DNA of 64,000 nucleotides, taken from a virus. Position 1 is the stretch's first letter. The number at the start of each line of letters is the position of its first letter. The position numbers were made by a program, and so were the translations under genes. The notes beneath the pieces are model-generated. The model was not told the origin of the DNA and searched no databases. It was given only the letters and a program-made list of their open reading frames with translations. The DNA lies in the IMG/VR virus record IMGVR_UViG_3300014202_001529; one strand, 5' to 3'. This document shows, piece after piece, positions 1,226 through 36,077 of the stretch.

Positions 1226-4200
1226 CTGAACCTGTTTAAGTTTTTCACGCTGTTTTCGGAAAGTATCCAGTGTAGAGCCTTTTTCGTAACTGCCATAGGA
1301 TACGTTTGCATAAGCACGAATAAATGCCATCATGGCTTTTTCAGTATCCGGCTCTGTCTCGTATTTTGCGAGCATTTGAGCTACTTTTTCACGTCCTGAT
1401 TGTTTATCCTCTTCAGTGTACGCGTCTATTCTGGGGTTTGTCTTCGCTTCTAAAAGCCAGCCTTCCATTTTTTGAAAGGTTGCTTGGAAGTTATCGCGCT
1501 GTGAGACCACATTGTTTAATTGGTTAATAGCAGACCACGCGAGTAACGCTTCTGACTTCAAAAATTCTTCTTCCTGCTTCACTTCGTATTTTACAATCGC
1601 CTCCGGATCGTTGATCAGGCCGCGTTTCAGCTCTTCTGCATTCAGCTCCGATTCCTCAAAAGCTTTGGTCCCGTCCGTTTTGGTCCAAACTGAATTCAAT
1701 CGCGCCATCTTTTCAGACAGCTTCTGCCATGTAAAAATGTCGCTGGAGTTTTCAATGAGTGGCACTACGATTCGGACAAAACCGTATTTATTGCCAAATC
1801 GCCAGATGCGCCCCATTAATTGGTGCAGGTCTGTTGGATTCCAGTCTAAATAGCACACGTAGATCACGCTTCCGTTTTTTTGAAGATCGACGCCTTCGCG
1901 CATGGTGCTGGTACCAATGATCACCTTTATTTCGCCTTCCAAAAAGGCTTCCTTTATTTTTTCGCGGCGATCGGCACTTATGCCTGCGTGAAATTCAGCC
2001 ACTTCTTTGTCGCTAAACCCTACGTTTTTGACCAAATATTCTTTGATCGTCGGAAACCACTCCTTGCCCCGATCTGAATAAATAATCTGTCCCGAAATTG
2101 GCGTTTTGTTTTTTTCGTGGTGTGCCTTTACGCTGCGAATGCACTCGCAGGCATACAGTATTTTCGGCGAATTTTTGACAAACTCGTCGGCAGGTATTTC
2201 ACCTGGGTATCCAACTGACACGTCGCCGTACCTCACCGCATACGGAGAAAACGTAGCCATTCTGGCAGCATTCATTGCGATAAGCGTTCTACCGTCAACT
2301 ATTCCCTTTTTGTTTGGCGGATACGCCTGTGCAATTGGGTTTTCACGGTCATTTTCGGCGGCAGCAAATTGAGCCGCTGCTTTCAACCATTGCATTTGCA
2401 AAGGCGCCGGAGGAAGTACGGTATCTACAATGTACTGAAAATCTAATGGGATGCCTTTTTCATCAGTTTTCAGCGGTAGTACTACTTTTTCCGGGCGATG
2501 TATGTTTGCATCTTCACCTGTTTTGTAGTTTACCGAACGGCGAACCAAGGATTGCAAAATGGGAAGGTTATTGTAGCCACGAATGACCGCCTTAATAGCG
2601 AACTGGCCTGCTGTCGTCCAGGCATCCTCAAGCGTTTCATCAATAAAGGTGGAACAAAATTGAGCGAGGTTGTATACGTCAAAATCCTTCATGCCGTGGT
2701 AGTCAAACAAAGACAGCATGGAGTAGATTTCCGTAGCCCTGTTGGTGAATGGTGTAGCCGTCAGGCCAAAGGTATTGCGCAGGTTTTTTTGATCTTGGAC
2801 ATAAGCGTTCAACATGAATAGCTTCACGGCACGGGTGCTCGGTGAACTACTGCCCCCGGAAAAGAAATCTTTTCGTTGACGCTCACCGTCACGGCCTATA
2901 TCTCCGCGAACTTCCATGAACAGGTTCCGGAAATTGTGCCCTTCATCCACGATAATGCAATCAATCCCCATTTCATCGATGGTCACTTTGGTGTCTTTTA
3001 ACGCCGTGTCTATCCAGGTATCTGCCTGCCCTTCAATAATTGCTTTTGATCGGCCACTTTCGCCTTGTGAAAGGGCTTCGGCCAACCGCTGGCTAAGCTT
3101 ATTTTCAATTTTCTCGGTAAACCCAATCAGCTCCAGCCCTTCGTAGGTCACCATCGTAATGGAGTATTCTTCCACGGTGAGCGTGATGCTGCCTTGTGTC
3201 GCTTTACCCAGATATTTGCCGCCTAAATTGTAGTAGTCGTTCACCTTCAGTTGCGGCAGAATCCCTTCCGATATAATCTGACCGGCTTTGATGCTTTTGC
3301 CGTTAATGGTCATCGCCTTTTCAGCCTTGATGCCGGAGATTTCCGCAATCCATTTGTGGTAAACTTTTTGCGGCACTACGATCATAGGCCGTTTAAACAA
3401 GCCTTTTTCAATGCCGTCCATAATGCCCAAAATGGCCGTCAGGGTTTTGCCGACGCCCACATCAAAGGCTACAATGCCTCTGCCACGTCCACCCATAAAA
3501 GCGACGCCTTCGCGTTGTGCCGGGCGAATGGCCAGTTTGCCGCCTTTGAACGAACGGTTTACAGAAAATCCAACGGGAATTCGATGGTAGGCTATGTCCA
3601 CGTAGTTGTTGCGCAGGCTATTCCAAAGCCCTGCAATTTTGGCTTTATCCACCTCGGCTAACTGCTCAATAATGAAACGGTCAAAAAGCCTTTGCCCGAT
3701 AATGGTTGTATTTCTCTTTATGGATGCTTTTTCTGCTTCTGAGTAGAGGTTACGCGGGAAATTTATCTTCAGTATCCAACGATTATATATATCCTGTGCA
3801 TTTGTTTGTTTTCTCTCGAAAACAAAATCGCTATTAGGCAATTGGTCCATCCAATTTTTAAAAAACGACCATATAGAAAGCTGTTCACCCTCATCTGCTG
3901 CATAGCCATTTGCAATTTGCTTGATTTCTACATCGTCCCAAATTTTGTCGAAAGGCGACAAATACAATCGCTTGGTTTCGTCCAGTGTGATCAACAATTG
4001 CTTAGGCTTTGCGGCCTGCATTTTGTTGACTTGCAGGTCGTAGCCCCCTTCTCCGATCATCTCCACAATGGCAGCCTTGTTGTCTTCCAGGATGCGTAGG
4101 TTGCGGTAGATGTTGCCGGAGTAGTACAGGCTTTCAGGAACCCACTCCTGGCCGTTGTAGGCAACAAGCTCTTGCTCCCACCAGCTCAGCCACTGGTCTT

Positions 4201-5101
4201 TTGAAGGATTTTCGATGAAATAGTCTTTCCAGTCGTTGCTCTTGATGGTCGCTTTGTCGTAAACCCCTTGCTGCACTTGATAGGTGACCCACACCGTTAT
4301 TTCTTCCGGCGAGATGGTGTAGTAAGCGGTTTGCCCACCTGGTGTTTTGTATTCTACTCTTTGATTATACCGCAGGATGGTTTCCCCCAAACATTCTAAT
4401 CCCTCTTCGCAAGTGCCGCCGCGATTGCTACGTTCAGAATTCTGCTCTTTGGTCGCCTTTACAATCTGCGTAATTTTGGTGGCAAGTTGCACCTGCTTTT
4501 CAACCGGCGCTGCGGGCTGCATGGCTGCCGGCGTTTCATCCGGTTTCACATGCTCAAAGCGCATTCCGTTTCGGATGTGTGATAACCTTTTTATAGCATC
4601 TTCCAGGGACCCTTGAACTTCTGGTCGCGGTTTTCCAAATGCGTCGGTCAATTCCTTGCCGGTATTCTTGTTGTGGGTTACAATTTCGCCCAATACTTTG
4701 CCAGGGTTGTCGAGGAAGTATTGGCCGGAAAATGGGCTTGCGCTTTTTTGGGTAATAACCGTAGCAAATGTTTCTGGCACCGTTAATTTTGCGGACTCCG
4801 TGGTTGCTGTGGTGACAGGTATGATAGGTAATTTTTCAATATACCAATACTTCGTCATTAAGCTTTCTACTGCTTTGGCCAAGTTTGAGTTGCCGTCCAA
4901 TAGCTTCGTTCCAACAATATCGGTAATTTTATACTTTGATCTATTTTGGTAGATATTTGCAACTTTTTTACCGCTTCTATTGAACAGTTCTATATCGCCT
5001 TTATCGTTCAGCGCTACTGTCCATCCGTATTGAGATACAGTTTCCAGCAGTTGCGCATCAATTGTGCTGACTGGTGCAGCGGGTGTTTTTAGCTTTGCCA
5101 T
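326..5101 (-). CDS. Large SNF2/SF2 helicase (DarB / large-polyvalent-protein type) with C-terminal DUF2958-like domain
   Basis: Motif I AFDVGVGKT, motif II IIVDEGHN, motif III LTATPFTN, motif V GTSTMREGVDLQ, motif VI QLMGRIWRFGN. C-terminal HFFIDNSDWYIAEWDG...FG...AEWGYLS is typical of DUF2958. Start taken at MAKLKTP. Confidence 0.85.
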   Translation of the reverse strand: MAKLKTPAAPVSTIDAQLLETVSQYGWTVALNDKGDIELFNRSGKKVANIYQNRSKYKITDIVGTKLLDGNSNLAKAVESLMTKYWYIEKLPIIPVTTATTESAKLTVPETFATVITQKSASPFSGQYFLDNPGKVLGEIVTHNKNTGKELTDAFGKPRPEVQGSLEDAIKRLSHIRNGMRFEHVKPDETPAAMQPAAPVEKQVQLATKITQIVKATKEQNSERSNRGGTCEEGLECLGETILRYNQRVEYKTPGGQTAYYTISPEEITVWVTYQVQQGVYDKATIKSNDWKDYFIENPSKDQWLSWWEQELVAYNGQEWVPESLYYSGNIYRNLRILEDNKAAIVEMIGEGGYDLQVNKMQAAKPKQLLITLDETKRLYLSPFDKIWDDVEIKQIANGYAADEGEQLSIWSFFKNWMDQLPNSDFVFERKQTNAQDIYNRWILKINFPRNLYSEAEKASIKRNTTIIGQRLFDRFIIEQLAEVDKAKIAGLWNSLRNNYVDIAYHRIPVGFSVNRSFKGGKLAIRPAQREGVAFMGGRGRGIVAFDVGVGKTLTAILGIMDGIEKGLFKRPMIVVPQKVYHKWIAEISGIKAEKAMTINGKSIKAGQIISEGILPQLKVNDYYNLGGKYLGKATQGSITLTVEEYSITMVTYEGLELIGFTEKIENKLSQRLAEALSQGESGRSKAIIEGQADTWIDTALKDTKVTIDEMGIDCIIVDEGHNFRNLFMEVRGDIGRDGERQRKDFFSGGSSSPSTRAVKLFMLNAYVQDQKNLRNTFGLTATPFTNRATEIYSMLSLFDYHGMKDFDVYNLAQFCSTFIDETLEDAWTTAGQFAIKAVIRGYNNLPILQSLVRRSVNYKTGEDANIHRPEKVVLPLKTDEKGIPLDFQYIVDTVLPPAPLQMQWLKAAAQFAAAENDRENPIAQAYPPNKKGIVDGRTLIAMNAARMATFSPYAVRYGDVSVGYPGEIPADEFVKNSPKILYACECIRSVKAHHEKNKTPISGQIIYSDRGKEWFPTIKEYLVKNVGFSDKEVAEFHAGISADRREKIKEAFLEGEIKVIIGTSTMREGVDLQKNGSVIYVCYLDWNPTDLHQLMGRIWRFGNKYGFVRIVVPLIENSSDIFTWQKLSEKMARLNSVWTKTDGTKAFEESELNAEELKRGLINDPEAIVKYEVKQEEEFLKSEALLAWSAINQLNNVVSQRDNFQATFQKMEGWLLEAKTNPRIDAYTEEDKQSGREKVAQMLAKYETEPDTEKAMMAFIRAYANVSYGSYEKGSTLDTFRKQREKLKQVQERILSRHKLTVFDDFTHVKEEYQIRLNKLSDDVSILLSPEEFQRRLAIVEAEKEKERASSRNVSQRVTEFSRLNYLLDCLDGIHTCDIYGRVTEIKSGEVVEVDTKVQAQIAEPFTFGEKLSRFMPKIQQRVVSRIILENAEPGYADNVLAPLKVQVESIPALYATESVPAAEKIIYAHFFIDNSDWYIAEWDGKDKLFGFAILGGDDQNAEWGYLSMKEINAARGRMGNGVELDFNWEPVPFSQIKKAQAKEEEEEAADNDLQAAISSLQLAMEFAEGDDKASLASAIEALETAMEFA

Positions 5102-5108
5102 AAGTCGT

Positions 5109-5333
5109 TTAGTCGAGGTGAGACAATTCCATTTCCACTTCGGCAATAGCCGTTTGGATGCTTACCGGCTCTTCCCGGGTCATTAGGTTGTTGGTGAGCA
5201 TGCGCTCCAGCTCTGCATAATTGCCAGTACGCAGCGCACACACTTCCGGATGGGTTTCACAATGCAGCTTTTCTACTTCCTGCTTAATTTCATCCTGGAG
5301 CACCTTCAGCACTCCGTTGATCATGGCGTCCAT
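5109..5333 (-). CDS. Small helical hypothetical protein between methylase and helicase
   Basis: 74-aa ORF filling the gap; in frame with the upstream methylase, separated only by TGA-CCT. Confidence 0.6.
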   Translation of the reverse strand: MDAMINGVLKVLQDEIKQEVEKLHCETHPEVCALRTGNYAELERMLTNNLMTREEPVSIQTAIAEVEMELSHLD

Positions 5334-5336
5334 AGG

Positions 5337-6071
5337 TCATTTTTTTTTGAAGACAACAATATCCGTTTGCACGTCTGTGGCTTCAAAGACGCGCTTAGGC
5401 AGCCGGTATGCATCCAGCATTTCAGCCTTGGCTAAAATGTCGCGTTTGCAGTCGTTTTCCTTCCCGTCTATAAAGCTGGAAGGGATGATGTAAACCAGAA
5501 TCCCGCCAGGTAGCAACAGGTCCAATCCGCGTGTGATGAAATACTCCACGTAGTTGGCAGCTTTGGTGATCTGCTTTTCGGCAGCGGTGCCTTTGCCGGT
5601 GAAATCGCCATACGGCGGATTCCCGATAACAAGATTGTATTCCATTTTCCAGGTTTGTGCAACGCCGGTGCGATCGGCAAACAAAGCGTTGAATGTTCCT
5701 AAGCGAATGTCGAAGGTTGGGAAATTGGCTTTGGCTATGCGGTAGCTTACTTCGTCCAGCTCGATGCCGGTGACGGATGCTTCCGGACTGAAATAGTGCA
5801 AAATCCGGCCTATTCCGCAAGATGGCTCTAACACCTTGCCACCGGTGAACCCGTGGTGATGTGCCAGACCAACCATTTTTTCGACAATCGGGATCGGCGT
5901 GTAGTATTCATACAGGCCACGTTCTTTTTTCAGGTCGGCTTCAAAGTTCCACATGCCGCCAAATCCGATGTACTGATTAACATAAGCCAGTTCGCTGATG
6001 GTGTACGGTGGGGTTTTGCCCATCACGAACTGCGCTATTTCCTGGTTGAGTTTGTAGGCGCCCTGGTTCAT
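5337..6071 (-). CDS. N6-adenine DNA methyltransferase (DarB-like methylase domain, stand-alone)
   Basis: Motif I VLEPSCGIG, motif IV GNPPY, EYYTP near the N-terminus. Start MNQGAY overlaps the upstream stop (ATGA). Confidence 0.88.
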   Translation of the reverse strand: MNQGAYKLNQEIAQFVMGKTPPYTISELAYVNQYIGFGGMWNFEADLKKERGLYEYYTPIPIVEKMVGLAHHHGFTGGKVLEPSCGIGRILHYFSPEASVTGIELDEVSYRIAKANFPTFDIRLGTFNALFADRTGVAQTWKMEYNLVIGNPPYGDFTGKGTAAEKQITKAANYVEYFITRGLDLLLPGGILVYIIPSSFIDGKENDCKRDILAKAEMLDAYRLPKRVFEATDVQTDIVVFKKK

Positions 6072-6754
6072 GTTGTTGCCATTTTGGAGGTGAAAATGTT
6101 GATGCTGGTGCCCCCTTTCTTCTTCACCCAAAACCAAATGCCAACAATGATGAGCAGCACCAGAATGATGATGAAAATGGTAGAGCCTCCGCCGCCACTG
6201 CCTGGTTCCTTGATTTTGGAGCCAAAGAGAAAGCTCCAAATCTTTTCGAGCAGGTTGGGCTTGTCTATGAAGATTTCGTAAGACATTGGATTGAGCGCCA
6301 AAAGGCCAAACAGGCTACCCCCAGGCGCATCTTCCGTTTGTCCGTACCCTACAATGCTATCCTTGCCGATAGCAGGATTGTAAAATCCGCCGCCTTCGGG
6401 GTTGTACTCCAGCTTCAGCACATTTTCCATCATAAATTTGATGTTGCGCCGGTTGATTTGCTCTCCAACCAGTTTGGCAACGGGTTGCAGTTTTTCACCC
6501 TCTACATACTCCGTACCATTGGGTTGGATGAAGAAAATAAGCGTAGGGTCGGTTTTGACTTTTAGCTGCGGGTGCTTTTTTGCATCGGCCATCGGAAAAG
6601 ACCAGTAATCAATGCCAGAAAGCATGGCTTCGTCTTGTGGAAAACTTTCCATGCCTGCCCAAATTTCTTCTGAGAAATTGTGACCATCTGCCCAGTATTT
6701 TTCCCAGTCTTCTGTGTAGACGGCCAGAAGGTAATAGTACTTTAAATCACTCAT
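6068..6754 (-). CDS. Membrane-anchored protein with possible degenerate thioredoxin-like domain
   Basis: PTLIFF segment resembling the thioredoxin cis-Pro strand; C-terminal hydrophobic run IFIIILVLLIIVGIWFWV followed by KKK; no CxxC. Confidence 0.45.
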   Translation of the reverse strand: MSDLKYYYLLAVYTEDWEKYWADGHNFSEEIWAGMESFPQDEAMLSGIDYWSFPMADAKKHPQLKVKTDPTLIFFIQPNGTEYVEGEKLQPVAKLVGEQINRRNIKFMMENVLKLEYNPEGGGFYNPAIGKDSIVGYGQTEDAPGGSLFGLLALNPMSYEIFIDKPNLLEKIWSFLFGSKIKEPGSGGGGSTIFIIILVLLIIVGIWFWVKKKGGTSINIFTSKMATT

Positions 6755-7488
6755 ATCCGATTATACTTTTGAGTTAAAGCGACGCACGCAACGAGTGCCA
6801 CCACAATGAGTAGAAAAAGCCCCCATTCGCGCTGTGCAGCAGGCGAGTGCAGGATGTATTTTGCGCTTTGCAAAAAGTAGAATATCCGGTTGTTTCCGGA
6901 TGCCGTCACCGCGCCTTCTTCCGACTGATCGGGGAATTTTTCCAGCCGGTTCAGCCAGCCTTGCAAAAAGCCCGACTGTTGCGGCTTTGAGGTTACAATG
7001 TCCTGGTAGTATTGCGCCCGGCGATCTTTGTACAAGTTGTGGAGCACGCCAGGGTGATGCTGATCCACGGCAGACAATGTGGCTGTGCCAATGCGACCAT
7101 CCACCTTCAGCTTTTCGCCGAATTTCTGGTTCAGGGTGCTTTGCAGCATCGTGATTCCACCGGTTTTGCCGCTGCTCCCGGGACCGTGTTGGATGGTGGC
7201 ATCGAATACGATTTCAGCGAGCGCCTGGTTGGCGATTTCGCCCAACTGGTTTTTGTCCCAAAACCACTTTTTGTAAATCTCCATCGCCACGGCCTGCGAC
7301 AAGCCTTTCATATCGGCTGCACTTGGCACGCGACCAAGCCACGATTCCAGAATGGGCGCAGAAATACCGTATTTGGTGCCAACCAACTGGCCACGGCTGT
7401 TGTAGTTGCCGCTGTCCATGTCGTTGTTCTGGTAGCCGCCTTCTAATTCCAAAATTTTGGCCTGCAATGACGAGGTGAACTTTGCCAT
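6751..7488 (-). CDS. Glycoside hydrolase family 108 lysozyme with peptidoglycan-binding domain and C-terminal TM anchor
   Basis: EGGY...D.G...GTKYGIS catalytic segment; RRAQYY...FLQGWLNRL PG_binding_3-type tail; terminal hydrophobic helix. Confidence 0.88.
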   Translation of the reverse strand: MAKFTSSLQAKILELEGGYQNNDMDSGNYNSRGQLVGTKYGISAPILESWLGRVPSAADMKGLSQAVAMEIYKKWFWDKNQLGEIANQALAEIVFDATIQHGPGSSGKTGGITMLQSTLNQKFGEKLKVDGRIGTATLSAVDQHHPGVLHNLYKDRRAQYYQDIVTSKPQQSGFLQGWLNRLEKFPDQSEEGAVTASGNNRIFYFLQSAKYILHSPAAQREWGLFLLIVVALVACVALTQKYNRI

Positions 7489-7931
7489 TATTTCTTCTTT
7501 TTGCGGGTGAACCAGAACCAAGCCAGAACGGCCAGGCCAATGATGATGAGCGACGCCAACACCCAGCTAAACTCCTTCAGCCTTTTGATGACGTCCACGC
7601 CGATGCCTACTTTGCCGATCGGGTAGCCCAATTCGCTTAGCGTGTCCATTAGGGTACTTTCCGTGGCCCAATCAGCGGCGTCAATTGTTCGAAGAACGTT
7701 GCCGCTTGATGCCTCGATGAAAGCAAAAGAAGGAATGTTTGACAGGCCGTATTGGCTCATCAACAGCATGGTGTCTTCATTCTCATCATCCATCACCGGG
7801 AAAAGCACGGTGTTGCCTAACTGCTGGTAGTAGTTCTCGCTTACGCGCTCAACGATTTTAAGCAGCGGACCACACGCCGCGCAGTTGTCGGAGTGGAAGT
7901 AGAACACTGTGATCAAATTTTCGCTTTTCAT
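7488..7931 (-). CDS. Thioredoxin-fold protein (CAAC) with C-terminal TM anchor
   Basis: VFYFHSDNCAACGPL active-site context, YGLSNIPSFAF, C-terminal TM followed by RKKKK. Confidence 0.8.
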   Translation of the reverse strand: MKSENLITVFYFHSDNCAACGPLLKIVERVSENYYQQLGNTVLFPVMDDENEDTMLLMSQYGLSNIPSFAFIEASSGNVLRTIDAADWATESTLMDTLSELGYPIGKVGIGVDVIKRLKEFSWVLASLIIIGLAVLAWFWFTRKKKK

Positions 7932-8350
7932 TTTTTTCTACGTTTGCGGGTGTACCAGAAATAGCAGATGGCGATGAGGATGACGCCCAGAATGGCCAGC
8001 ATCCAGGCGTTGCGAGGATTGAGAATGAGAATGACCTGATTGAAAAGCGAAGGTGTTGTGCGCTCGTATCCCAGCTGTGCGAGCTGGTCCACAATGGTGC
8101 CTTCTGTGATGGCCGATGCCGGCGCAATGACCTGCTGAACTTTGGTGTCGAAAAAAGTGACCTGCGGGAGGTCCGTAATGGAAAGGTTCTGAACGGCATC
8201 CGGAGATGCATCCGGGTCTAAAATAGAGAAGACCACCTTGGTTTCGTCATACTGAAGCCGTAGGCGGTCGAAGATTGCAGCCAAGCGGCTGTAATCGGTT
8301 GAAGTCTTTTTTGCGACTAAAATAACGTTCATCACGAGTATTTTAGCCAT
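7928..8350 (-). CDS. Thioredoxin-like paralogue lacking CxxC, with C-terminal TM anchor
   Basis: LSITDLPQVTFFD parallels the neighbour's LSNIPSFAFIE; both share a L(A/S)(Q/E)LGY segment; TM followed by RKRRKK. Confidence 0.55.
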   Translation of the reverse strand: MAKILVMNVILVAKKTSTDYSRLAAIFDRLRLQYDETKVVFSILDPDASPDAVQNLSITDLPQVTFFDTKVQQVIAPASAITEGTIVDQLAQLGYERTTPSLFNQVILILNPRNAWMLAILGVILIAICYFWYTRKRRKK

Positions 8351-8428
8351 CCTCTTAAACAGATTGCAGCGGGAAGTTTGGCGAAGGGCGCCTTCTGTTC
8401 CCACTGTAATCGCTGCAATATTAAACTT

Positions 8429-8710
8429 TTATTGTGAAATAATCAATTTTTGTTTAAAAATTGGATTTATTTTAACGGCAACCATCTTTGCTCCGGATGA
8501 TGTGTATTTGACTCCCAGTTCGATGTCAATATTTTTTTCATCAAGCTTTTTGACTACGATCATCTGATCGAATAGTCCATATTTGTTTAAGTCGTGCAAT
8601 GTGAAATCAGGGTTATGTGCCCTGATAAATGCCCATGCAATTATGATTGCAATTGTCTTTTTATTAAGCATAACGTTTAGCGTTTTTGTGTTGTGAATTA
8701 TATTTTCCAA
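8429..8710 (-). CDS. Hypothetical protein (AT-rich insert)
   Basis: ORF only. Confidence 0.45.
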   Translation of the reverse strand: MENIIHNTKTLNVMLNKKTIAIIIAWAFIRAHNPDFTLHDLNKYGLFDQMIVVKKLDEKNIDIELGVKYTSSGAKMVAVKINPIFKQKLIISQ

Positions 8711-9099
8711 TCTTTTCTCGCCCCATAAACCGGTCGAATCTCAAACACCGCATTTGGCTCGTTCTTTTGCAGTTGCGCCTGCGCATCCTCTGCACTTTCT
8801 AAGTGTTCGTACAACCGCTTTTTGATGTATTCCAGTTGGAATCCGGTTTCTCCGATCCATTCTTTTTCATTGTGGGTAGTGGCGTATTTGGTATTCCTGT
8901 AAATGCAGTAGCCAACAATCGTGTACTCTTGAATGGTATCGGCAGAAACGGATTCTGCATCAAATAAAATTTTTATTGCTGGTTTTAACCGATTGAAGTA
9001 GTCCTTGTTTTGGCGTACAACTTCAATAATGTCATCAATAGTGATGATTTCGCCATCTATTTTTAGGTGAAAGGTTTCCATCTTTTTGACTTTTAGCAA
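8698..9099 (-). CDS. Hypothetical protein
   Basis: ORF in a co-oriented chain. Confidence 0.6.
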   Translation of the reverse strand: MLKVKKMETFHLKIDGEIITIDDIIEVVRQNKDYFNRLKPAIKILFDAESVSADTIQEYTIVGYCIYRNTKYATTHNEKEWIGETGFQLEYIKKRLYEHLESAEDAQAQLQKNEPNAVFEIRPVYGARKDWKI

Positions 9100-9314
9100 A
9101 AAAGAAATAAAAAATCATTACGCGATAGTTCTTGGTCTACATAATAAGTCTTCCAAAACGAGCATGATTTTAACCTTCGGTAGCTCCAGTGAGAATTGTT
9201 CCATTGTTGGAGTTTCATCGCTAAAATTGACTTATCGCCCGGAGTATAAGCCTTCCAAAGGACTAAAACAGTAGAGCTATGTGTACCTATTTTGGCGTTT
9301 ATAGTGTTTTTCAT
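9093..9314 (-). CDS. Hypothetical protein
   Basis: ORF in a co-oriented chain. Confidence 0.5.
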   Translation of the reverse strand: MKNTINAKIGTHSSTVLVLWKAYTPGDKSILAMKLQQWNNSHWSYRRLKSCSFWKTYYVDQELSRNDFLFLFC

Positions 9315-9323
9315 GGCTGCATT

Positions 9324-9548
9324 TTATTTATACTCAATCCAATATTTTGTGTTGTCTTGCGAACTCAACGCTTTAATCCATTCCGACAACGTACACCGGT
9401 ACCCAATTGGAACCCATCCCCAGTAGCTTACACAACCACCACTTTTTTCTGCAATCCGGCAATGGGTCATTGCGCCGGTTTGCGGGGTCAATAGGGACGA
9501 CGATTCCAGGTGGATTAAATTCGCGTATCCGAGTAGTATCTCTATCAT
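9324..9548 (-). CDS. Hypothetical protein
   Basis: ORF in a co-oriented chain. Confidence 0.4.
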   Translation of the reverse strand: MIEILLGYANLIHLESSSLLTPQTGAMTHCRIAEKSGGCVSYWGWVPIGYRCTLSEWIKALSSQDNTKYWIEYK

Positions 9549-9554
9549 CGGCCA

Positions 9555-10082
9555 CTATTTTTTTGGCCAATACCGCTGAATAACCATTAGGTATTCTTCA
9601 GTATTCCCATGATGAAGCGATCTAAGCGCTTCAAAAAAACAAACGATTTCTTCGTGTACACTAAATACTTTTTTGGGCAAATGATAGGTAAATTCTTGAT
9701 CATAGTTCCACTCAATCCGGTCTCCTTTAATAAGAAACTGCGCAAGGGCATTGATGATGGTTCGGGATTTATCTGCATGGCAGTTAAACCCTTCGTAGAC
9801 TTGTATGATTTCGTCCAACTGCGCTTCAACAAATTCAGAATTAAGAAATAACCATTTGGCTTTATCGCTTATTCCCTCAATTTTTGAACTCAAAAACCCA
9901 TTCAAAAACTTTTCATACGGGTAGATCATGGTGTAAAAAAAAGACTCAACATCTCCTATCTTTTGGAGACAGTCTTTGTTGATGTGATCGGCCTCCAAAA
10001 CGGCTTGGTAAAGTGCTATTTCTTCGGCTTTAATACCGTCAACCATTGACAGCATTATCTTTTTCAAACTAACTTCTTCCAT
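9555..10082 (-). CDS. Hypothetical protein (AT-rich)
   Basis: 175-aa ORF. Confidence 0.65.
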   Translation of the reverse strand: MEEVSLKKIMLSMVDGIKAEEIALYQAVLEADHINKDCLQKIGDVESFFYTMIYPYEKFLNGFLSSKIEGISDKAKWLFLNSEFVEAQLDEIIQVYEGFNCHADKSRTIINALAQFLIKGDRIEWNYDQEFTYHLPKKVFSVHEEIVCFFEALRSLHHGNTEEYLMVIQRYWPKK

Positions 10083-10834
10083 GTTGGTAGCTTTTTTCTA
10101 AAGTAATAAAACGCAAGTCCAAACAGCAACACCGCCACCAGCGCCCACGCCAGCGACCTGCCCTTAATATCCTCTCCCCGATCATCCGGACTGACAATTT
10201 CCCGGAACATGCCCACAATGGCCCCAAATGGCCGAAAAAGCCAGTCGAACGAGATTCCCCCCGATGATTGTTGTGTGATATTGGCCGATACGGTGTCGGT
10301 GTTGTAGCGCAGCCGCTTCTGGTTGTTCCAGTAAGCGTAGCGGGCACCCCGCCAGGTCTCCGTCCGTTTGCTGCGGAAAGATGGATACAGTTCTGATTGA
10401 ACTGTATCTATATGCAGGAAGGTATCATACACGCCAAAACCCCTTGCGCCGGCATCCCACAATGCCCGAAAAAGCGGGCCTTTGGCCTTGTAATCTTCGC
10501 GGATCGAAACGTACAGCCGATCTACCTCTGCCTGAGCGCCAATGAACTGGAAATCTATCGCACACGCAAGCATGTGCGGACTTTGAGAAACGCCCCCTGG
10601 GGGGACGTAAGTGCGGTAGGTGGACGTTATCCGGATTGGATAGTCGAAAGCGTCGCGGATGATCTGTACGCAGCGCACTGCCTGCAAGGAGATTGGATGC
10701 GAACGCCCGATTTTCGGATTATACAGTTCAGCTTCCGTGAAATTGTCCGTCACCCGAGCGGATGAACCGGCACTGACCATCACGAAATCGTTCGGGTCGT
10801 TGGCATGCAGTGGTAAAAGCGTGTCAGGCTTCAT
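10064..10834 (-). CDS. Peptidase M15-family Zn peptidase (peptidoglycan hydrolase) with C-terminal TM anchor
   Basis: ITSTYR...SPHMLACAIDF (H-x6-D) and FLHIDT zinc ligands; terminal LAWALVAVLLFGLAFYYF followed by RKK. Confidence 0.82.
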   Translation of the reverse strand: MKPDTLLPLHANDPNDFVMVSAGSSARVTDNFTEAELYNPKIGRSHPISLQAVRCVQIIRDAFDYPIRITSTYRTYVPPGGVSQSPHMLACAIDFQFIGAQAEVDRLYVSIREDYKAKGPLFRALWDAGARGFGVYDTFLHIDTVQSELYPSFRSKRTETWRGARYAYWNNQKRLRYNTDTVSANITQQSSGGISFDWLFRPFGAIVGMFREIVSPDDRGEDIKGRSLAWALVAVLLFGLAFYYFRKKLPTWKKLV

Positions 10835-11138
10835 CTTCTTGTTCTGATTTTAGCTTTAGCCAGAGGATTGCGGCCAGCACAATGACCAATATTAGCAAAA
10901 TCCCGGTTGCGAGCTTGTAATTAAATCCGGGTTTTGGTGGTGGTGCTGGTTGTGGCGTTGTTGCTGTTGTGGCTCCTTTTTCGACGAACGCGTTAATGGC
11001 GTTTTCAAATAAAGCGCCAACGAACTCCCCTTTGTAGGGCGTGCCGGTTTCACTGTCTTTTTGCTCTTCATAGAGCTTCAAGACGTTTTCGGCAATGCCT
11101 GCATCTACTTTCATTCCCAATAGGGTGACTTTGCTCAT
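10824..11138 (-). CDS. Small membrane protein with C-terminal TM
   Basis: Pro/Thr linker followed by LATGILLILVIVLAAILWL-KLK. Confidence 0.75.
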   Translation of the reverse strand: MSKVTLLGMKVDAGIAENVLKLYEEQKDSETGTPYKGEFVGALFENAINAFVEKGATTATTPQPAPPPKPGFNYKLATGILLILVIVLAAILWLKLKSEQEDEA

Positions 11139-11208: not shown

Positions 11209-11613
11209 TTACACTGACTGGAATTGCCGCAGCTCTATCATCCCCTCTTCGACTGCCGCGTTGAAGGCATAAAGCACCAGCAGGTAGGCCGGGTCGGCGC
11301 TTTGGTGAACATCCTGCGTTTCCAAAATCGCTTCGTGCGATTCTGTGTTTTCGCGGTAGTACTTAATCAGCCGCTCTACAATTGCAGAAGCTGCGCCGCT
11401 TTTGGTTTTATAGATCCGGTCCACTTCTTTCCACCACGGAGCACCGTGGAATCTTACATTTTTGGTTTTGGCGTTGGCAAACGGGTTGTCGCCTTCGCTT
11501 TCCGCAGCAGCGGTATTGCTGTTCTTTTTCCACAAACGAAAAGCTGCATACCACGCGGCAATGGTGAGCAGAATCAATAGTACCAGGGCAATTGTAGCGG
11601 TCGTCTTTTTCAC
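11209..11613 (-). CDS. Membrane protein with N-terminal TM
   Basis: MKKTTATIALVLLILLTIAAWYAAF-RLWKK. Confidence 0.75.
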   Translation of the reverse strand: MKKTTATIALVLLILLTIAAWYAAFRLWKKNSNTAAAESEGDNPFANAKTKNVRFHGAPWWKEVDRIYKTKSGAASAIVERLIKYYRENTESHEAILETQDVHQSADPAYLLVLYAFNAAVEEGMIELRQFQSV

Positions 11614-11620
11614 GGCATTT

Positions 11621-11824
11621 CTATTTTCTTGCAGCAGCCACGCTGGCCGCTATCATCACAATGAGCAAAAACAATAAGCCCAGGATCACATACAACAGGG
11701 TATTATCCCTGCTTTTCTGGAAATCCTTGGCTGTCATCCAATCCGGTAGCCTACCCCAGCGAGCTTCTTTGTCGGCAGCAAAAAGGTTGGTGACGGATGT
11801 TAGAAACCCAAAAATTGCGTTCAT
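11621..11824 (-). CDS. Small membrane protein with C-terminal TM
   Basis: LLYVILGLLFLLIVMIAASVAAA-RK. Confidence 0.75.
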   Translation of the reverse strand: MNAIFGFLTSVTNLFAADKEARWGRLPDWMTAKDFQKSRDNTLLYVILGLLFLLIVMIAASVAAARK

Positions 11825-11828
11825 GACT

Positions 11829-12206
11829 TTATTTTTTACGACTCAACCGCCGCATAAGGAAAAAGCCGGTAATTCCAACCAAAACCAACAGGGCAATCAC
11901 AATCGGCCAGAGCATTTGTGTGCGCTCGGCCTCCTGCTGTTTTTCGCCGGTTGGGTCATAAAACTCTTCGATGGTTGCATCCTGGCCGGAGCAGGGATCG
12001 TATCCGTAGGCAGACATCACCACACGGCGGTCCACGTAGTTCCCGGTGCATAAAAACTCATCCTTGGTTGCAAGGTTGTAGTTCCCGCTGCACGCAGCGT
12101 CGCACGCACGTTCCAAATCGGGCTGCGCACCAAACCAGCTTTTGCACCGCTGCCGGCAATGCAGTTTTTTGCAGGATTTGTACCCTAAGCACGCTTCTAA
12201 GGCCAT
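11829..12206 (-). CDS. Cys-rich membrane protein with C-terminal TM
   Basis: Eight Cys in the N-terminal domain, then TM and RRLSRKK. Start MALEAC follows the stop of the 12211 ORF. Confidence 0.75.
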   Translation of the reverse strand: MALEACLGYKSCKKLHCRQRCKSWFGAQPDLERACDAACSGNYNLATKDEFLCTGNYVDRRVVMSAYGYDPCSGQDATIEEFYDPTGEKQQEAERTQMLWPIVIALLVLVGITGFFLMRRLSRKK

Positions 12207-12210
12207 AGCT

Positions 12211-12366
12211 TTATTTTTTTCGTGTGGATGCAAATACAAGCCCGGAAACGATCAGGGCAATGCCGACTACAATGCCGACAAAAATCAATATGCGCCGACG
12301 TTTCCTACCTGCGCAATTGTTGCAGCCGCAGCCGCAATCCTCTTTTTGTTCTTGTGGATGTTCCAT
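12211..12366 (-). CDS. 51-aa membrane microprotein with CGCGCNNC motif (not in ORF track)
   Basis: Hand translation: MEHPQEQKEDCGCGCNNCAGRKRRRILIFVGIVVGIALIVSGLVFASTRKK; fills the gap exactly. Confidence 0.7.
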   Translation of the reverse strand: MEHPQEQKEDCGCGCNNCAGRKRRRILIFVGIVVGIALIVSGLVFASTRKK

Positions 12367-12369
12367 GTG

Positions 12370-12702
12370 TTATTTTTTACCTCCCCTGAACAGGAAGATG
12401 ATCAATACCAGCACAACCACCACCACCAACGCCACAATGGCGTACATGAGCGTGTTGTTCTGTTGTGGTGCTGGTTGGCCGTTATAGCCTCCCGGCGTTG
12501 GATTGGAACCGCTGCCGCCCCGGTTCAGGATGGCGTCGAGCACTGCGCCCAGGCCGGTGCCCCAACCTGCGGCGTTTTCGCCGGAGTACCAGGGATCAGT
12601 TTTTGTGCCGTCGTTTCCAGCGCCCGTAGCGGATTGGCCCGTTGTTGGCGCCCGCAATCCTTTTATGTTGGAGCCGTAGCCCTGCATGCCAATGGTTTCC
12701 AT
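12370..12702 (-). CDS. Gly-rich small membrane protein with C-terminal TM
   Basis: Gly/Asn/Pro-rich N-terminus; LMYAIVALVVVVVLVLIIFLF followed by RGGKK. Confidence 0.75.
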   Translation of the reverse strand: METIGMQGYGSNIKGLRAPTTGQSATGAGNDGTKTDPWYSGENAAGWGTGLGAVLDAILNRGGSGSNPTPGGYNGQPAPQQNNTLMYAIVALVVVVVLVLIIFLFRGGKK

Positions 12703-12776: not shown

Positions 12777-13229
12777 TTACTGTGGCGATCCAGCCTGGAC
12801 ACGCGAATTCGTTTCTAATTGCTTCGTATTAGCGCTGCCACCCGGCGTCGGGAAAAACCATTTCAGGATGTACGTGTAAAATCCGGTCGCCGTGGCAAAG
12901 CCTGCAATCAGGTCCCAAAAACCGGCTTTCCCATTCACAAAGAAGATAACTGCTCCTACGCCCGCAATAACGATTACCCGAAGGCGGACTTCTGTGATTT
13001 TTTTCAGGAACGGAATCCAATTCGACAGGTACGTGATCAGGATAATCAGAAACCCGTACAACGCAGTGTACCAGCTCAGCCATTCCGGCAATCCCCAGCC
13101 CGGCATGGGCAGTGGAAGTGGTTCCGGTGTGACGGTTTGTGCCAGGCACCAGGCCGTCATGGTAAATGCAAACAAAACAAGCAGCCCCATGCGCAGCATG
13201 AAGCGGTTAAGGTTCAGATGAAGGTTCAT
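12777..13229 (-). CDS. Multi-TM membrane protein with signal-peptide-like N-terminus (holin-like candidate)
   Basis: MLRMGLLVLFAFTMTAWCLA-QT followed by three hydrophobic helices. Confidence 0.55.
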   Translation of the reverse strand: MNLHLNLNRFMLRMGLLVLFAFTMTAWCLAQTVTPEPLPLPMPGWGLPEWLSWYTALYGFLIILITYLSNWIPFLKKITEVRLRVIVIAGVGAVIFFVNGKAGFWDLIAGFATATGFYTYILKWFFPTPGGSANTKQLETNSRVQAGSPQ

Positions 13230-13488
13230 TCTGTTGACGTTTTTTTATATTGGTGGTGAAATAAATTATTGCGGCCATTAACAGGCAATCTCGAATTGTG
13301 TAAGCCACAACATCCGGATAGACCAAACACGCGAACGAAGCAGCAGGAATCGTCAGCAGCAGCATTCTTTTCCACACCTGCACGCAGTCCTCCAACGCCG
13401 TGACAAATAGCAGCACGCCGATGATGAATCCTGTGTTGATCAGGATGTTAAAAAAAAACCGAGCTGTTTCTAATCCTTCTTTTTCCAC
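13207..13488 (-). CDS. Small multi-TM membrane protein
   Basis: Three hydrophobic segments. Confidence 0.6.
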   Translation of the reverse strand: MEKEGLETARFFFNILINTGFIIGVLLFVTALEDCVQVWKRMLLLTIPAASFACLVYPDVVAYTIRDCLLMAAIIYFTTNIKKRQQNEPSSEP

Positions 13489-13826
13489 GGGTTTAAGTCG
13501 TTTATCACTTTTTGCGGATTTTCCAAAAACTTTTTGGAAAGCGTTAGTATTCCTCCAATCAGGTACATACCGGTTAGTCCGAAGACAAACCCAAATCCCG
13601 CTGCGGCAGAAATTTTCAGTTCAATGAAATTCTGCACCAGCAATATTCCGTAGTAAGCCGATGCCAGTCCGGAGGCTACTTGTACCAAGGCTTCAAAAAA
13701 GGTAATGCCCTTTTGATGCGCCACGGCCAGTATGCCGCCGACAAATCCGGCAATCAGCGTCGCAGCCATTTCGCTGCCTAACTTTTCCGCCAACCACAGC
13801 TTTAGTTCGTCATTGTTCATGGTCAT
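13470..13826 (-). CDS. Putative holin-like protein
   Basis: 118 aa, about three Gly/Ala-rich TMs and a charged C-tail ending KKKD, a layout common in phage holins. Confidence 0.55.
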   Translation of the reverse strand: MTMNNDELKLWLAEKLGSEMAATLIAGFVGGILAVAHQKGITFFEALVQVASGLASAYYGILLVQNFIELKISAAAGFGFVFGLTGMYLIGGILTLSKKFLENPQKVINDLNPWKKKD

Positions 13827-15770: not shown

Positions 15771-15780
15771 ATTATTGATA

Positions 15781-15795
15781 TTGTGTTTTACGCAA
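15781..15795. promoter_or_regulatory. Operator palindrome, variant copy (TTGTGTTTTACGCAA)
   Basis: 10 bp upstream of the S8 start. Confidence 0.6.
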
Positions 15796-15798
15796 TTT

Positions 15799-23268: not shown

Positions 23269-23661
23269 TTAGCTGAATATTTGATATTTGACAAAGATGT
23301 TGGCGGCAATTCGGGGTGCAGTGAAAACAATGGTATCCACCGCAGCACCAGCGCCATACGTGACCGAAAAATCCAGAATGGGATAGTCGTCTACCCCTTC
23401 TGTTTTCACCGCCATAAGCGCCAGGTTGGTTGGTAGTTTTCCGCCGTTGACGCCGATGGGCACGGGCAGGTTGGTGCCGGAAAAGTTCTCTTCGACAAAA
23501 TAGAAAGCGCCGGTAAGCACGCCGGATATGCCAACAATTTGTGATGGGTGAACCCTGACGACTTTCCCGTTGGTCAGCTCCAATACAAGCCAATCCCCAT
23601 TGCTTAGCGCAATGTCCGGATCGGTTAATGCTGAAGGCTTATTTCCCGTAATATTGCACAT
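23269..23661 (-). CDS. Small beta-rich putative structural protein
   Basis: 130 aa with alternating hydrophobic strands. Confidence 0.55.
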   Translation of the reverse strand: MCNITGNKPSALTDPDIALSNGDWLVLELTNGKVVRVHPSQIVGISGVLTGAFYFVEENFSGTNLPVPIGVNGGKLPTNLALMAVKTEGVDDYPILDFSVTYGAGAAVDTIVFTAPRIAANIFVKYQIFS

Positions 23662-23673
23662 GTGCTGAGCGTA

Positions 23674-24081: not shown

Positions 24082-24093
24082 TGGGTGCTGGTT

Positions 24094-24417: not shown

Positions 24418-24494
24418 ATTCGTGGAAATTAAAAATGGCCTTGCCCGAAACAAGTCAAGCAAGGCCATTTATGTGTTAGCAATTACTTGCTGTA

Positions 24495-24635: not shown

Positions 24636-24638
24636 AGT

Positions 24639-24776: not shown

Positions 24777-24777
24777 G

Positions 24778-24903: not shown

Positions 24904-24905
24904 CG

Positions 24906-25082: not shown

Positions 25083-25088
25083 CGCTGG

Positions 25089-25304
25089 TTACTTCTTGCC
25101 GTAAGAATAGGCTTTCGCAATAGCGCCAGCCGTACTGTCGGTTTGGTTGCCGGAAGTGCCTCCTACAGGATCTCCTCCAGTTCCAGTGCCGCCACCTGCT
25201 TCATCCTTTTTCTTTTTGCGGTAGTAATAAACCGCAACGACGATACCTGCGACGAGCACAAGGACGATAATCCAAAATTTGTTCTTTGACCAGTTCATAG
25301 TCAT
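25089..25304 (-). CDS. Single-TM microprotein
   Basis: FWIIVLVLVAGIVVAVYYY followed by RKKKK and a Gly-rich tail. Confidence 0.75.
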   Translation of the reverse strand: MTMNWSKNKFWIIVLVLVAGIVVAVYYYRKKKKDEAGGGTGTGGDPVGGTSGNQTDSTAGAIAKAYSYGKK

Positions 25305-25708
25305 TTCCTTTGTTGAAGAAGTCTAAAAATCAAAGCGATCATAAGCAGACAAAAAAGCACGAAAAGTATGCTTATCCAGTTCACGTTCATCTGCGAAAAC
25401 CATTTCCCTATTTGCACCTCCGGTTTATCCGAATGCTGCTTTTCGATCAGGTTTTGCAAGGTCGTCCGGTTGGATGATGCGGTCAGAAAATCTGCATTTT
25501 CGCCGTAAAAATCAACGGGCACACTTAGTACGTCAACCAAAAAAGCCTTTGCTTCCCGGTCTCCCATGCCACTCATGGCATCAATAATCACGGTGTATAA
25601 TTCATCCGGCATTAAATACTCCTGAAGAATCCCACGCGTCTGAAGCTTTTCAGCGACGGCAGTGGGATTGTTCAAGAGGATGGCGGAAATAAAATCTTGC
25701 AGGTTCAT
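25301..25708 (-). CDS. Membrane protein with C-terminal TM
   Basis: WISILFVLFCLLMIALIF followed by RLLQQRK. Confidence 0.75.
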   Translation of the reverse strand: MNLQDFISAILLNNPTAVAEKLQTRGILQEYLMPDELYTVIIDAMSGMGDREAKAFLVDVLSVPVDFYGENADFLTASSNRTTLQNLIEKQHSDKPEVQIGKWFSQMNVNWISILFVLFCLLMIALIFRLLQQRK

Positions 25709-25761: not shown

Positions 25762-26472
25762 CTAGTCGCGAGCGTAAGCCTGTACGAAGAAAGTCATGGT
25801 GATGACCATCCCGTGGTAGGCATTGAAAACCCAGGCGCAGTTGCGATCCACACGCGACTTCTCATCCGTCAGCGGGATGATGTACGTGTTGCGGTCGTAG
25901 TTGGCCGGGTCGTTGAAGTTGCCGAGTGGCAATTCATGCGACACTTTCTTCCGTGTGGTCATGTTGTAGCAGATGATCCGCTCCTGGTACTGCATCAGTG
26001 CAGTCGCAGCGGCACCTGCCGCTGGCGCTACATCAATCTTCACGCCGCTGAACAGGTAAGTTTGTCCACACAGACCGGCAACCCAGCTGTTGTACAAGTT
26101 ACGGGCAGCAGTATTGACATACACGCTATTGGCTGGGAATGGCGTAGCCAAACCTTCATAAGCCTGGAAGTATTTGCCCTCATCGAAAAGGACGATTTGC
26201 TGCTGTGCGGAAGTGAGGCCGAGGGCAACCGTGTTTACTACAACCGTTACGCTGTCCTCAACAGCAATTCCTTCAGGGATGGACAAGTTAGCGATCGGTT
26301 GGCCAACAGGCACCTTTGCGCTTACGTTCATGCCGCGTTCGGGCAGGATGAGCTTTGTGCCTGCGCCTGGAACAAGCTTAGATGCCGTGCCGGGGAGTAG
26401 GTTAGAAGAAACCGCGTCCGAAGCCTGACGGTTCATTTTGGATCTGGTAAGCAATTGTTGGAAAGCACTCAT
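25762..26472 (-). CDS. Putative major capsid protein with jelly-roll-like fold
   Basis: 236 aa from MSAFQQ: ~70-aa low-complexity N-arm, then about eight predicted beta strands (VTVVVN, QIVLFD, YLFSGVKIDV, RIICYN, HELPL, TYIIPL, AWVFNA, VITMTFFV). First gene after the ATPase-operon terminator and ahead of the membrane-protein run. Confidence 0.5.
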   Translation of the reverse strand: MSAFQQLLTRSKMNRQASDAVSSNLLPGTASKLVPGAGTKLILPERGMNVSAKVPVGQPIANLSIPEGIAVEDSVTVVVNTVALGLTSAQQQIVLFDEGKYFQAYEGLATPFPANSVYVNTAARNLYNSWVAGLCGQTYLFSGVKIDVAPAAGAAATALMQYQERIICYNMTTRKKVSHELPLGNFNDPANYDRNTYIIPLTDEKSRVDRNCAWVFNAYHGMVITMTFFVQAYARD

Positions 26473-26689: not shown

Positions 26690-26977
26690 CTACACGTCTT
26701 CGTACCTAAATCTGATCGTAACCTCATCTCCTGACCGACGGAAAATCGTGATCAAGATGATGCGGGCTACCTCAATGGATACTTTTTTCTTCCGCTTTTG
26801 GTTCTCGTACAATTCTGAAAACCCCTCAACGGTATTTTTTAATAGCGATATTTCCTGGTTGTATAAGCCGGTATTACCTATGTTGAGCTTTTGCCTCAAC
26901 ACGGCTTTGAAAACGAAAGAACCGCAAGCGGGTACTTCGATGACTTTAGTTTCCTGTTCATTGTTTTGTTCACTCAT
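26690..26977 (-). CDS. Small basic hypothetical protein downstream of the ATPase
   Basis: 95 aa; ATGA overlap with the ATPase. Confidence 0.65.
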   Translation of the reverse strand: MSEQNNEQETKVIEVPACGSFVFKAVLRQKLNIGNTGLYNQEISLLKNTVEGFSELYENQKRKKKVSIEVARIILITIFRRSGDEVTIRFRYEDV

Positions 26978-27747
26978 ACCTCTACAATTTCATACGGCTG
27001 CACCAGGTAATTCGTTTCCTTTGCTTTTTCTACGCGCTGGTATGCCTGCCACAACCGTTCGGAGCAACTGTACCTACTTATCTGTTTGTAAGTAAGGTTA
27101 GTCTCTCCTGTCTTAAAGAGAATTATTTTCGCCAACATGTCGCTGCGTGAAAAAAACAGCGGCACCTTCATGAGCTGGTGGCACACGAAGAAAACCTCGA
27201 CGCCCCAGTTGCGGTGGTTGTTGATGATGTCAATCTGCCAATCAGGCGGATTAGCACGGACGTAGGTGGTCCACTCATCCAGAACCAACAATCCGTTTTT
27301 AAAATTTGTGGCGATGTAGGTGTACATGTGCTCAATGTTCCGGATGCCCCGGCACATGTAGCGCAATGCGCCGTTTTTCCAGAGGGGCTGGCCATTTCTG
27401 TCTTTTGCGGCCATCAGGTCAAGCGGATGCTCGAATTTTATGCCAAATTTTATGCGAAGTTGTTCGCACGCCTGCTCCACGGTAATGATGTCTGAAAATG
27501 CCCGGCTTCCGGACATATCGTGTATAAAAACTCGCGGCTGAACGTTTTCATACCGCGTGCTGAATTTGTCCAGATAGATGTCCACAGCATCGCGCAAAAA
27601 GGTAGATTTCCCTTGCCCTTTGCCGCCGATTATCAAATAAGCCTGATAATCGCGGGCGCCGGTCTGCTTTTCCTGCATAGCACGCAAAGTTCGCCCTGGC
27701 AATGGCTCCAGCCCTCTGTTCTCTCCTTCTTCTTTGCGCTTTGCCAT
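26974..27747 (-). CDS. FtsK/HerA-superfamily (A32/P9-like) packaging-type ATPase
   Basis: Walker A YLIIGGKGQGKST, Walker B LLVLDE, then NHRNWGVEVFFVCHQ (Arg finger plus Gln sensor). 257 aa, no TM, no nuclease domain. Confidence 0.8.
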   Translation of the reverse strand: MAKRKEEGENRGLEPLPGRTLRAMQEKQTGARDYQAYLIIGGKGQGKSTFLRDAVDIYLDKFSTRYENVQPRVFIHDMSGSRAFSDIITVEQACEQLRIKFGIKFEHPLDLMAAKDRNGQPLWKNGALRYMCRGIRNIEHMYTYIATNFKNGLLVLDEWTTYVRANPPDWQIDIINNHRNWGVEVFFVCHQLMKVPLFFSRSDMLAKIILFKTGETNLTYKQISRYSCSERLWQAYQRVEKAKETNYLVQPYEIVEV

Positions 27748-36064: not shown

Positions 36065-36077
36065 GCTGTTTTTATTT

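Follow-up and report, generated by a model that had tools for sequence, protein, structure and literature searches.

The question raised by this locus is why a virus should hold enzymes, among them two that cut the bacterial cell wall, in a membrane by their very last helix. The locus lies within 64,000 nucleotides of viral DNA (IMG/VR virus record IMGVR_UViG_3300014202_001529), referred to here as the window, whose minus strand carries one long, densely packed operon that holds the genes for these proteins. An earlier note, made from the sequence alone, had singled out five open reading frames (ORFs) between positions 6068 and 10834 as sharing one architecture, and a Kyte-Doolittle scan bears this out: each has exactly one hydrophobic segment, located C-terminally, and none at the N-terminus. 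The five transmembrane (TM) segments are strongly hydrophobic (Kyte-Doolittle values of 1.6-3.1), and the tails past the TM core start with lysine or arginine, contain two to six of these residues and have zero acidic ones. In order of coordinate, and all on the minus strand, the ORFs encode a cysteine-free protein of 228 amino acids (6068..6754) with a possible thioredoxin fold in its N-terminal 115 or so residues and a tail beginning KKKGG; a GH108 muramidase with a PG_binding_3 domain (6751..7488; 245 amino acids from its ATG, with 7521 as an alternative upper coordinate), whose tail is KYNRI and whose start overlaps the stop of the upstream gene; a thioredoxin-like protein of 147 amino acids (7488..7931) with a CAAC motif and an RKKKK tail; a cysteine-free thioredoxin-like paralogue of about 140 amino acids (7928..8350; the start is uncertain and may be 8404, 8350 or 8332) with an RKRRKK tail; and a Peptidase M15_3 of 256 amino acids (10064..10834) with a conserved juxtamembrane motif and an RKKLPTWKKLV tail. 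The reading favored here, with moderate confidence, is that the anchored proteins form the membrane proteome of a lipid-containing particle, in which the GH108 and M15 enzymes would be the analogues of the P7 protein of phage PRD1.

Both wall-cutting assignments of the earlier note hold up against Pfam. The muramidase scores 63.9 bits with GH108 (PF05838; cut-off 21.2) and 59.3 bits with PG_binding_3 (PF09374; cut-off 24.6), and it matches the PHROGs 'endolysin' family phrog_315 (8.5e-33). The peptidase scores 36.2 bits with Peptidase_M15_3 (PF08291; cut-off 23.2) and matches a second 'endolysin' family, phrog_894 (2.2e-13). EGGY is the conserved catalytic motif near the N-terminus of GH108 enzymes; it is present here within ELEGGYQ and occurs in all of the homologues read. 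The metal-binding and catalytic residues of the peptidase (H87, D94, H141 and D143, in an H-x6-D...H pattern) are invariant in 12 homologues. GH108 and M15 are the only recognizable wall hydrolases in the window.

The anchors of these two enzymes are retained among their homologues, in agreement with the check that the earlier note proposed. Every one of the 12 M15 homologues read (36-93% identity) has the C-terminal helix, but not all of them have the basic tail. Among GH108 homologues, an anchor is found in 8 of the 12 non-identical proteins read; relatives at 42-89% identity keep it, as do many at 34-40%, while others of 180-190 amino acids are without it. The 245-residue protein itself is identical to database protein P0001. 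In comparisons with phages, the catalytic part of GH108 alone finds matches, and these are to ordinary free endolysins; the match in a Phocaeicola phage is a 171-residue gene, too short to include the anchor region. A scan found no GH108 relatives among the viral_contigs. An anchored GH108 also occurs a few genes from a DarB-like helicase in another locus (L002, helicase at 2-4171), in a gene order other than that of the window, and the neighbors of two distant anchored GH108 genes (L003, L005) gave no matches to PHROGs.

The five ORFs belong to a larger set. At least 11 real genes of the window have the tail-anchor layout, and they are found at 6.0-12.7 kb and 25.3-25.7 kb; among the roughly 60 ORFs of the non-structural half (29-64 kb) there are none, bar one antisense ORF. 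A pattern so confined to the structural part is not the product of chance. On the minus strand next to the M15 gene, the hydrophobicity scan places a tail-anchored protein of 104 amino acids (10824..11138), followed by a 134-residue protein with an N-terminal TM segment that is conserved in relatives by synteny (11209..11613), and then by four core families, recognized by the scan and by conservation, with the same layout as the five ORFs (11621..12702). These core proteins are of 67, 125-136, 51 and 110 amino acids and lie at 11621-11824, 11829-12239, 12211-12366 and 12370-12702, respectively. Two of them are rich in cysteine: the family at 11829-12239 has seven invariant cysteines and a nearly conserved eighth within about 100 residues, and that at 12211-12366 has a CGCGC..C cluster immediately before the helix. 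These conserved cysteines could form disulfides or bind metal, which bears on the side of the membrane that they face. A further tail-anchored protein of 135 amino acids (25301..25708, minus strand) adjoins the capsid-like gene described below. Within the block, starts and stops overlap by 1-11 nucleotides, so the genes are translationally coupled, and the coupling reaches an N6-adenine methylase (5337-6071) and an SNF2 helicase (326-5146) downstream on the same strand, both of which match a DarB-like antirestriction family (phrog_10089).

The same block recurs elsewhere. When reference genomes were scanned with the alignment of M15 proteins, seven loci were returned. All belong to Saprospiraceae, among them the cultured Phaeodactylibacter xiamenensis KD52 and a metagenome-assembled Lewinella genome, and the block is conserved in these loci and in metagenome contigs. 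In KD52 the related prophage (L014) lies on scaffold NZ_JPOS01000079 at around 220.8-241.5 kb, with M15 at L014 9986-10729 and GH108 at L014 11176-11916. The order of the block begins with large proteins that have a signal peptide, a secreted protease (S8 except in one lineage, which has astacin) and small multi-TM proteins; it continues with the four core anchored families, the N-terminal-TM protein, an anchored protein, the anchored M15, an optional anchored GH108, the methylase and the DarB-like helicase. The tail-anchor layout is conserved in these relatives at 24-93% identity. M15 is the core enzyme of this family of elements: in six relatives (L007, L011, L012, L013, L015 and L016) the anchored M15 is the sole recognizable wall hydrolase and ends the block.

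What kind of virus carries such a block can be read from the genes next to it. A P-loop packaging ATPase of the A32/HerA/Zot kind (26974..27747, minus strand; 257 amino acids) has a Walker A motif of GGKGQGKST and a Walker B motif of LVLDEW. It matches A32/HerA/Zot clusters, many of them viral, by features (0.97) and by structure (TM scores of 0.63-0.68 by query and up to 0.90 by target), and has no sequence match in the Protein Data Bank (PDB). Two genes downstream of it lies the gene for a capsid-like protein (25762..26472, minus strand; 236 amino acids from Met21), for which a homology search found 20 distant relatives, each of about 240 amino acids. Its structure model (pLDDT 86.9) shows a jelly roll of eight strands and a helical arm at the N-terminus. 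Foldseek returned 47 PDB matches for this model at E<=1e-3, nearly all of them single-jelly-roll capsid proteins, and VIA-align placed it at Z 5-6 with the coats of satellite viruses, nanoviruses and geminiviruses, the penton of PR772, and the capsid proteins of FLiP and PBCV-1. These values for the model are middling (VIA Z<8) but consistent with one another. No terminase, portal, HK97-type capsid or tail protein was found with Pfam and PHROGs in these 64 kb of an approximately 70-kb genome. The window combines an A32-type ATPase and a jelly-roll capsid-like protein with none of the hallmark genes of tailed phages, which fits a tailless virus. A conjugative element was rejected, as there are no type IV secretion system families and the ATPase and jelly-roll protein are present instead. 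A Bacteroidota-type integrase, DnaB and several methylases complete the picture of a temperate virus. Taken as a whole, the element looks like a dormant or temperate virus of Saprospiraceae bacteria, seemingly tailless, with a jelly-roll capsid and a genome of about 70 kb. By analogy with other such viruses, its particle probably contains lipid. The DNA of the region has no match among GenBank phages, nor do the capsid-like protein, the ATPase or M15 have one among phages by tblastn.

Among known systems, the closest comparison is with P7, the lytic transglycosylase of the Tectiviridae (P14 is named alongside it), the example cited in the earlier note. The enzyme domain of P7 is N-terminal, a signal peptide is absent and a single TM segment occupies residues 221-239 of 265, so that P7 resembles the GH108 and M15 proteins in having a wall-cutting domain followed by a single C-proximal helix at a similar overall size. 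Its gene, too, is part of the late operon in a tailless virus and comes after genes for the ATPase, the capsid and small membrane proteins. According to the GenBank record, the PRD1 order is ATPase P9, capsid P3, small membrane proteins, P7 and holin P35, which parallels the window. P7 and P15 of PRD1 and P7 of PM2 are published membrane-associated virion lysins, and the role of PRD1 P7 in entry is published as well (PMC5380687). There are differences as well. P7 is an SLT-type transglycosylase, whereas the window has GH108 and M15 and no SLT match in Pfam; the tail of P7 is 26 residues long and not rich in basic residues; and PRD1 is a 15-kb tectivirus with a double jelly roll, in contrast to a virus of about 70 kb with a single-jelly-roll capsid-like protein. 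The GH108 and M15 enzymes are therefore analogues of P7 and not members of its family.

On this model, the five ORFs would be part of a conserved tail-anchored set of at least 11 members expressed from the late, particle-building operon. The proteins would be synthesized in the cytoplasm, would have no signal peptide and would be fixed in the cell membrane through the last helix; a patch of that membrane would then bring them into the internal membrane of the particle. GH108 as the cutter of glycan and M15 as the cutter of peptide would then be membrane-tethered wall hydrolases of the PRD1 P7 and PM2 P7 kind, expected to open the wall locally at entry. As the sole hydrolase of most relatives, M15 would, together with the holin-like protein of the operon, probably act in lysis at exit too. 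The favored reading draws on the type of virus, on the PRD1-like gene order and protein architecture, and on eleven functionally unrelated proteins that share one anchor design, which is far more than a lysis cassette needs. By analogy with PRD1, a virion-membrane role for the anchored enzymes is plausible.

Several points weigh against such a role. The presence of a holin-family gene and the endolysin-type PHROG assignments of both enzymes are just as compatible with lysis alone. A C-terminal TM segment is also found in endolysins of tailed phages, which have no virion membrane (PMC7143992, PMC8943055). In a distant relative (L009; its ATPase is 37% and its capsid-like protein 32% identical to those of the window), the M15 protein (L009 6103-6720) has a lipoprotein-type signal peptide and no C-terminal anchor, an indication that it acts from the side of the periplasm. 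The evidence for the capsid includes jelly-roll matches of no more than middling strength and just one jelly-roll protein. Finally, and by analogy with PRD1 assembly, the basic tails would under the positive-inside rule put the enzymes on the face of the membrane that becomes the inside of the vesicle.

The first three of these points suggest that the enzymes could serve lysis only, which is possible if somewhat unlikely. GH108 and M15 would then be endolysins of a design already described, tethered by their C-termini to the cytoplasmic membrane, reaching the wall by way of the TM domain, the holin-like protein or both, and not found in particles; the other anchored proteins would be unrelated membrane components. 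The earlier note had assumed that free endolysins normally lack such anchors, a premise to which M4Lys (PMC7143992) and Enc34 (PMC8943055) are published exceptions. In Enc34 ORF39, BSPM4 M4Lys and Siskin-type enzymes, the C-terminal TM domain is required for lysis (PMC7143992, PMC8943055), and in M4Lys, whose domain has three basic residues, this lysis is independent of holin and Sec (PMC7143992). These enzymes of Chivirus-like tailed phages, as well as LysAP of AP1, resemble those of the window: the catalytic domain is N-terminal, a signal peptide is lacking, and basic residues come after the C-terminal TM domain. They differ in that their catalytic domain is of the PHA02564 lysozyme-like type and their TM domain has two helices, whereas the window has GH108 and M15 with a single helix; moreover, they are encoded between holin and spanins and are reported to be limited to one clade, in contrast to enzymes that belong to an 11-member anchored set.

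The window does supply a candidate partner for lysis. A protein of 118 amino acids with three TM segments (13470..13826, minus strand) has a match (E 4.6e-10) to phrog_2359, a holin family of PHROGs. A series of small membrane proteins begins with it, and the close relative L001 conserves it at 83% identity. Since no other wall hydrolase is recognizable in the 64 kb and most relatives have M15 alone, M15 must also be considered a candidate lysis enzyme, and the exported lipoprotein form in L009 is in keeping with such a function. The arrangement agrees only in part with a holin-endolysin-spanin cassette: a distance of 2.6-6 kb, which includes the genes of nine other anchored proteins, separates the enzymes from the holin-like gene, and no spanin-like pair was recognized in the window. 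The non-enzymatic core proteins of the structural block use the same anchor design, and a tailless virus needs to open the wall at entry, for which no other candidate is seen. Adjacency to a holin does not discriminate either, as the virion enzyme P7 of PRD1 also adjoins a holin gene. In the end, lysis and a place in the virion membrane are not mutually exclusive functions. PRD1 itself provides the example of P15, which is virion-associated and is also the lysis enzyme.

Which way the enzymes face bears on the virion-membrane reading. The earlier note relied on the positive-inside rule to place the catalytic domains on the non-cytoplasmic face, and this argument turns out to be weak. In a set of 53 anchored proteins, drawn from the window and from seven loci related to it, the mean number of lysines plus arginines is 2.75 in the 15-residue flank N-terminal to the helix and 2.81 in the tail, which averages 5.8 residues. 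Net charge does differ (+2.4 in the tail against +0.3 in the N-terminal flank), because the flank is also acidic. With equal counts of basic residues on both sides, the rule was rejected as indecisive for fixing the topology. In the assembly model of PRD1, capsid protein encloses a patch of cytoplasmic membrane inside the cell, and the periplasmic face of that patch becomes the interior of the vesicle. If assembly here were of this type, an enzyme facing the periplasm would be locked in with the DNA, in conflict with wall cutting at entry, while one on the cytoplasmic face would end up beneath the capsid and, once the membrane tube forms at entry, on the outer surface of that tube. By this analogy, the topology of a true tail-anchored protein, with its N-terminal domain in the cytoplasm, fits an entry role better. 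It would also avoid the unsolved problem of exporting a domain of 120-230 residues without a signal peptide. The conserved cysteine-rich families and the lipoprotein signal peptide of M15 in L009 pull the other way.

If the opposite orientation were to hold, the anchored proteins could be reverse signal-anchors with the N-terminus out and the basic tail in the cytoplasm. The hydrolases, the cysteine-rich proteins and the CAAC thioredoxin would in that case form a viral disulfide and wall-remodeling set for the assembly or release of secreted fiber proteins, perhaps freed by the conserved secreted protease. This is quite unlikely. The difference in net charge agrees with it, and so do the two core families with conserved cysteines (seven invariant plus the eighth in one, four in the CGCGC..C cluster of the other), which suggest disulfides; the secreted S8 or astacin protease that precedes the block, and the S8 protease that neighbors an anchored GH108 in a distant prophage (L005), are likewise in line with it. 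Nevertheless, the equal counts of basic residues on both sides of the helix give it no support, the cysteine clusters could equally bind metal in the cytoplasm, the thioredoxin-like genes are absent from most relatives, and no known bacterial route exports N-terminal domains of 120-230 residues without a signal peptide (PMC8943055).

For the thioredoxin-like proteins, the count of three given in the earlier note has to be qualified. The 147-residue protein stands as redox-capable by virtue of its CAAC motif, which is conserved in the one orthologue found by homology search. Its Pfam thioredoxin matches fall below the cut-off (19.5 against 27) and its PDB profile matches are weak (E 0.0065-1), although almost all of them are thioredoxins. 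The protein of about 140 residues is its paralogue (hhalign 98.5%, E 3e-15) and has no cysteine, so that it is best described as a degenerate copy. For the 228-residue protein the likeness is a weak suggestion: it has no cysteine, hhalign finds no relation to either protein beyond the anchor, residues 5-115 align to thioredoxins in a low-confidence Atlas model alone, and its AF2 model (pLDDT 47.7) is unusable. Thioredoxin-like genes are present only in the window and in its close relative L001, and the anchored proteins of this kind are lineage-restricted and accessory.

Three other classes of protein share features with the anchored set. A cleavable sorting signal of the sortase, exosortase or rhombosortase kind would account for the tripartite look of a hydrophobic helix and a basic cluster at the extreme C-terminus, but the resemblance is superficial and the idea is highly improbable. 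No anchored protein has an N-terminal signal peptide, the flanks before the helix are unrelated and share no signature motif, and no sortase-like family was found in the window; sorting signals were rejected as an explanation of the anchors. SAR endolysins such as Lyz of P1 and R21 of phage 21 are also wall hydrolases held in the membrane before they act, and Lyz of P1 uses thiol-disulfide isomerization as well. The SAR anchor is N-terminal, Sec-dependent and releasable, whereas the helices in the window are C-terminal, have Kyte-Doolittle values of 1.6-3.1 and are followed by a basic clamp. Identity with SAR endolysins was rejected, since there is no N-terminal hydrophobic segment. Bacteria have tail-anchored inner-membrane proteins of their own (ElaB/YqjD/YgaM, DjlC, Flk and TssL), with a single TM segment in the last 30 or so residues, no signal peptide and often a basic end. 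These are cellular proteins encoded by scattered genes, whereas in the window a single viral operon has 11 such genes, including those of the two wall hydrolases.

The remainder of the operon contains further genes of note. The anchored set is interrupted at 8429..10082 (minus strand) by a stretch of low GC content (0.41 against about 0.50) with three anchor-free, soluble ORFs of 93, 133 and 175 amino acids and a poorly coding gap of 450 bp; L001 has this stretch too, L008 and L014 do not, and it resembles an accessory, moron-like island. According to the hydrophobicity scan, three small multi-TM proteins, the holin homologue being at their head, are encoded at 12777..13826, and a run of single-TM ORFs of 41-71 amino acids follows the 135-residue anchored gene at 24495-25304, all on the minus strand. 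At 23269-24468 on the same strand, between small membrane proteins and a 481-residue signal-peptide protein, lie genes for three conserved proteins of 124-135 amino acids that match no family; a second capsid protein, a penton or a spike-base protein may be among them. A protein of 405 amino acids at 34928-36145 is another candidate for a second capsid or penton protein. In most loci in which the upstream region is seen, a protease with a hydrophobic, signal-peptide-like N-terminus precedes the anchored block (window 13878-15842; L001 1583-3484; L008 5598-7247; L014 4192-5841; L005 8050-9633; L007 5708-6556). Most lineages have an S8 protease here, and L007 has an astacin that is unrelated to it; in L005/L006, a distant marine prophage, an S8 protease lies one gene upstream of an anchored GH108. 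This protease may process or release anchored or fiber-like proteins. The genes after the helicase in L001 (18326-20738) resemble the far right end of the window (61282-63775), which suggests a circular or circularly permuted genome of about 70 kb (L001 is 69,876 bp).

For the biology of these viruses, what is described here is a new variation on a known theme and not a new principle, as virion-membrane lysins and C-terminally anchored endolysins are both established. What is new is the occurrence of GH108 and M15 with such anchors, within a conserved tail-anchored set of many members, together with putative thioredoxin-fold proteins, in an undescribed and unusually large virus lineage. Up to now, membrane-tethered wall hydrolases have been known from a few small tailless phages (PRD1, PM2), and C-terminally anchored endolysins from one clade of tailed phages in which the route to the wall is unexplained. 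A more speculative extension, which is doubtful at present, treats the last helix and its basic clamp as an address tag. A new lineage of large, tailless viruses of Saprospiraceae would use it to place a variable complement of enzymes from the cytoplasm (muramidase, peptidase, thioredoxin-fold and cysteine-rich proteins) on the side of an internal membrane that faces the capsid. The CxxC thioredoxin, bound to the membrane, would then support a disulfide system in the cytoplasm comparable to those of poxviruses and giant viruses. Saprospiraceae are common in activated sludge and marine habitats, and as one host, Phaeodactylibacter xiamenensis KD52, is in culture, whether the enzymes act at entry, at exit or at both, and in which topology, can be answered at the bench. 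Beyond this lineage, the anchors could serve as tags for finding lipid-containing viruses in metagenomes.

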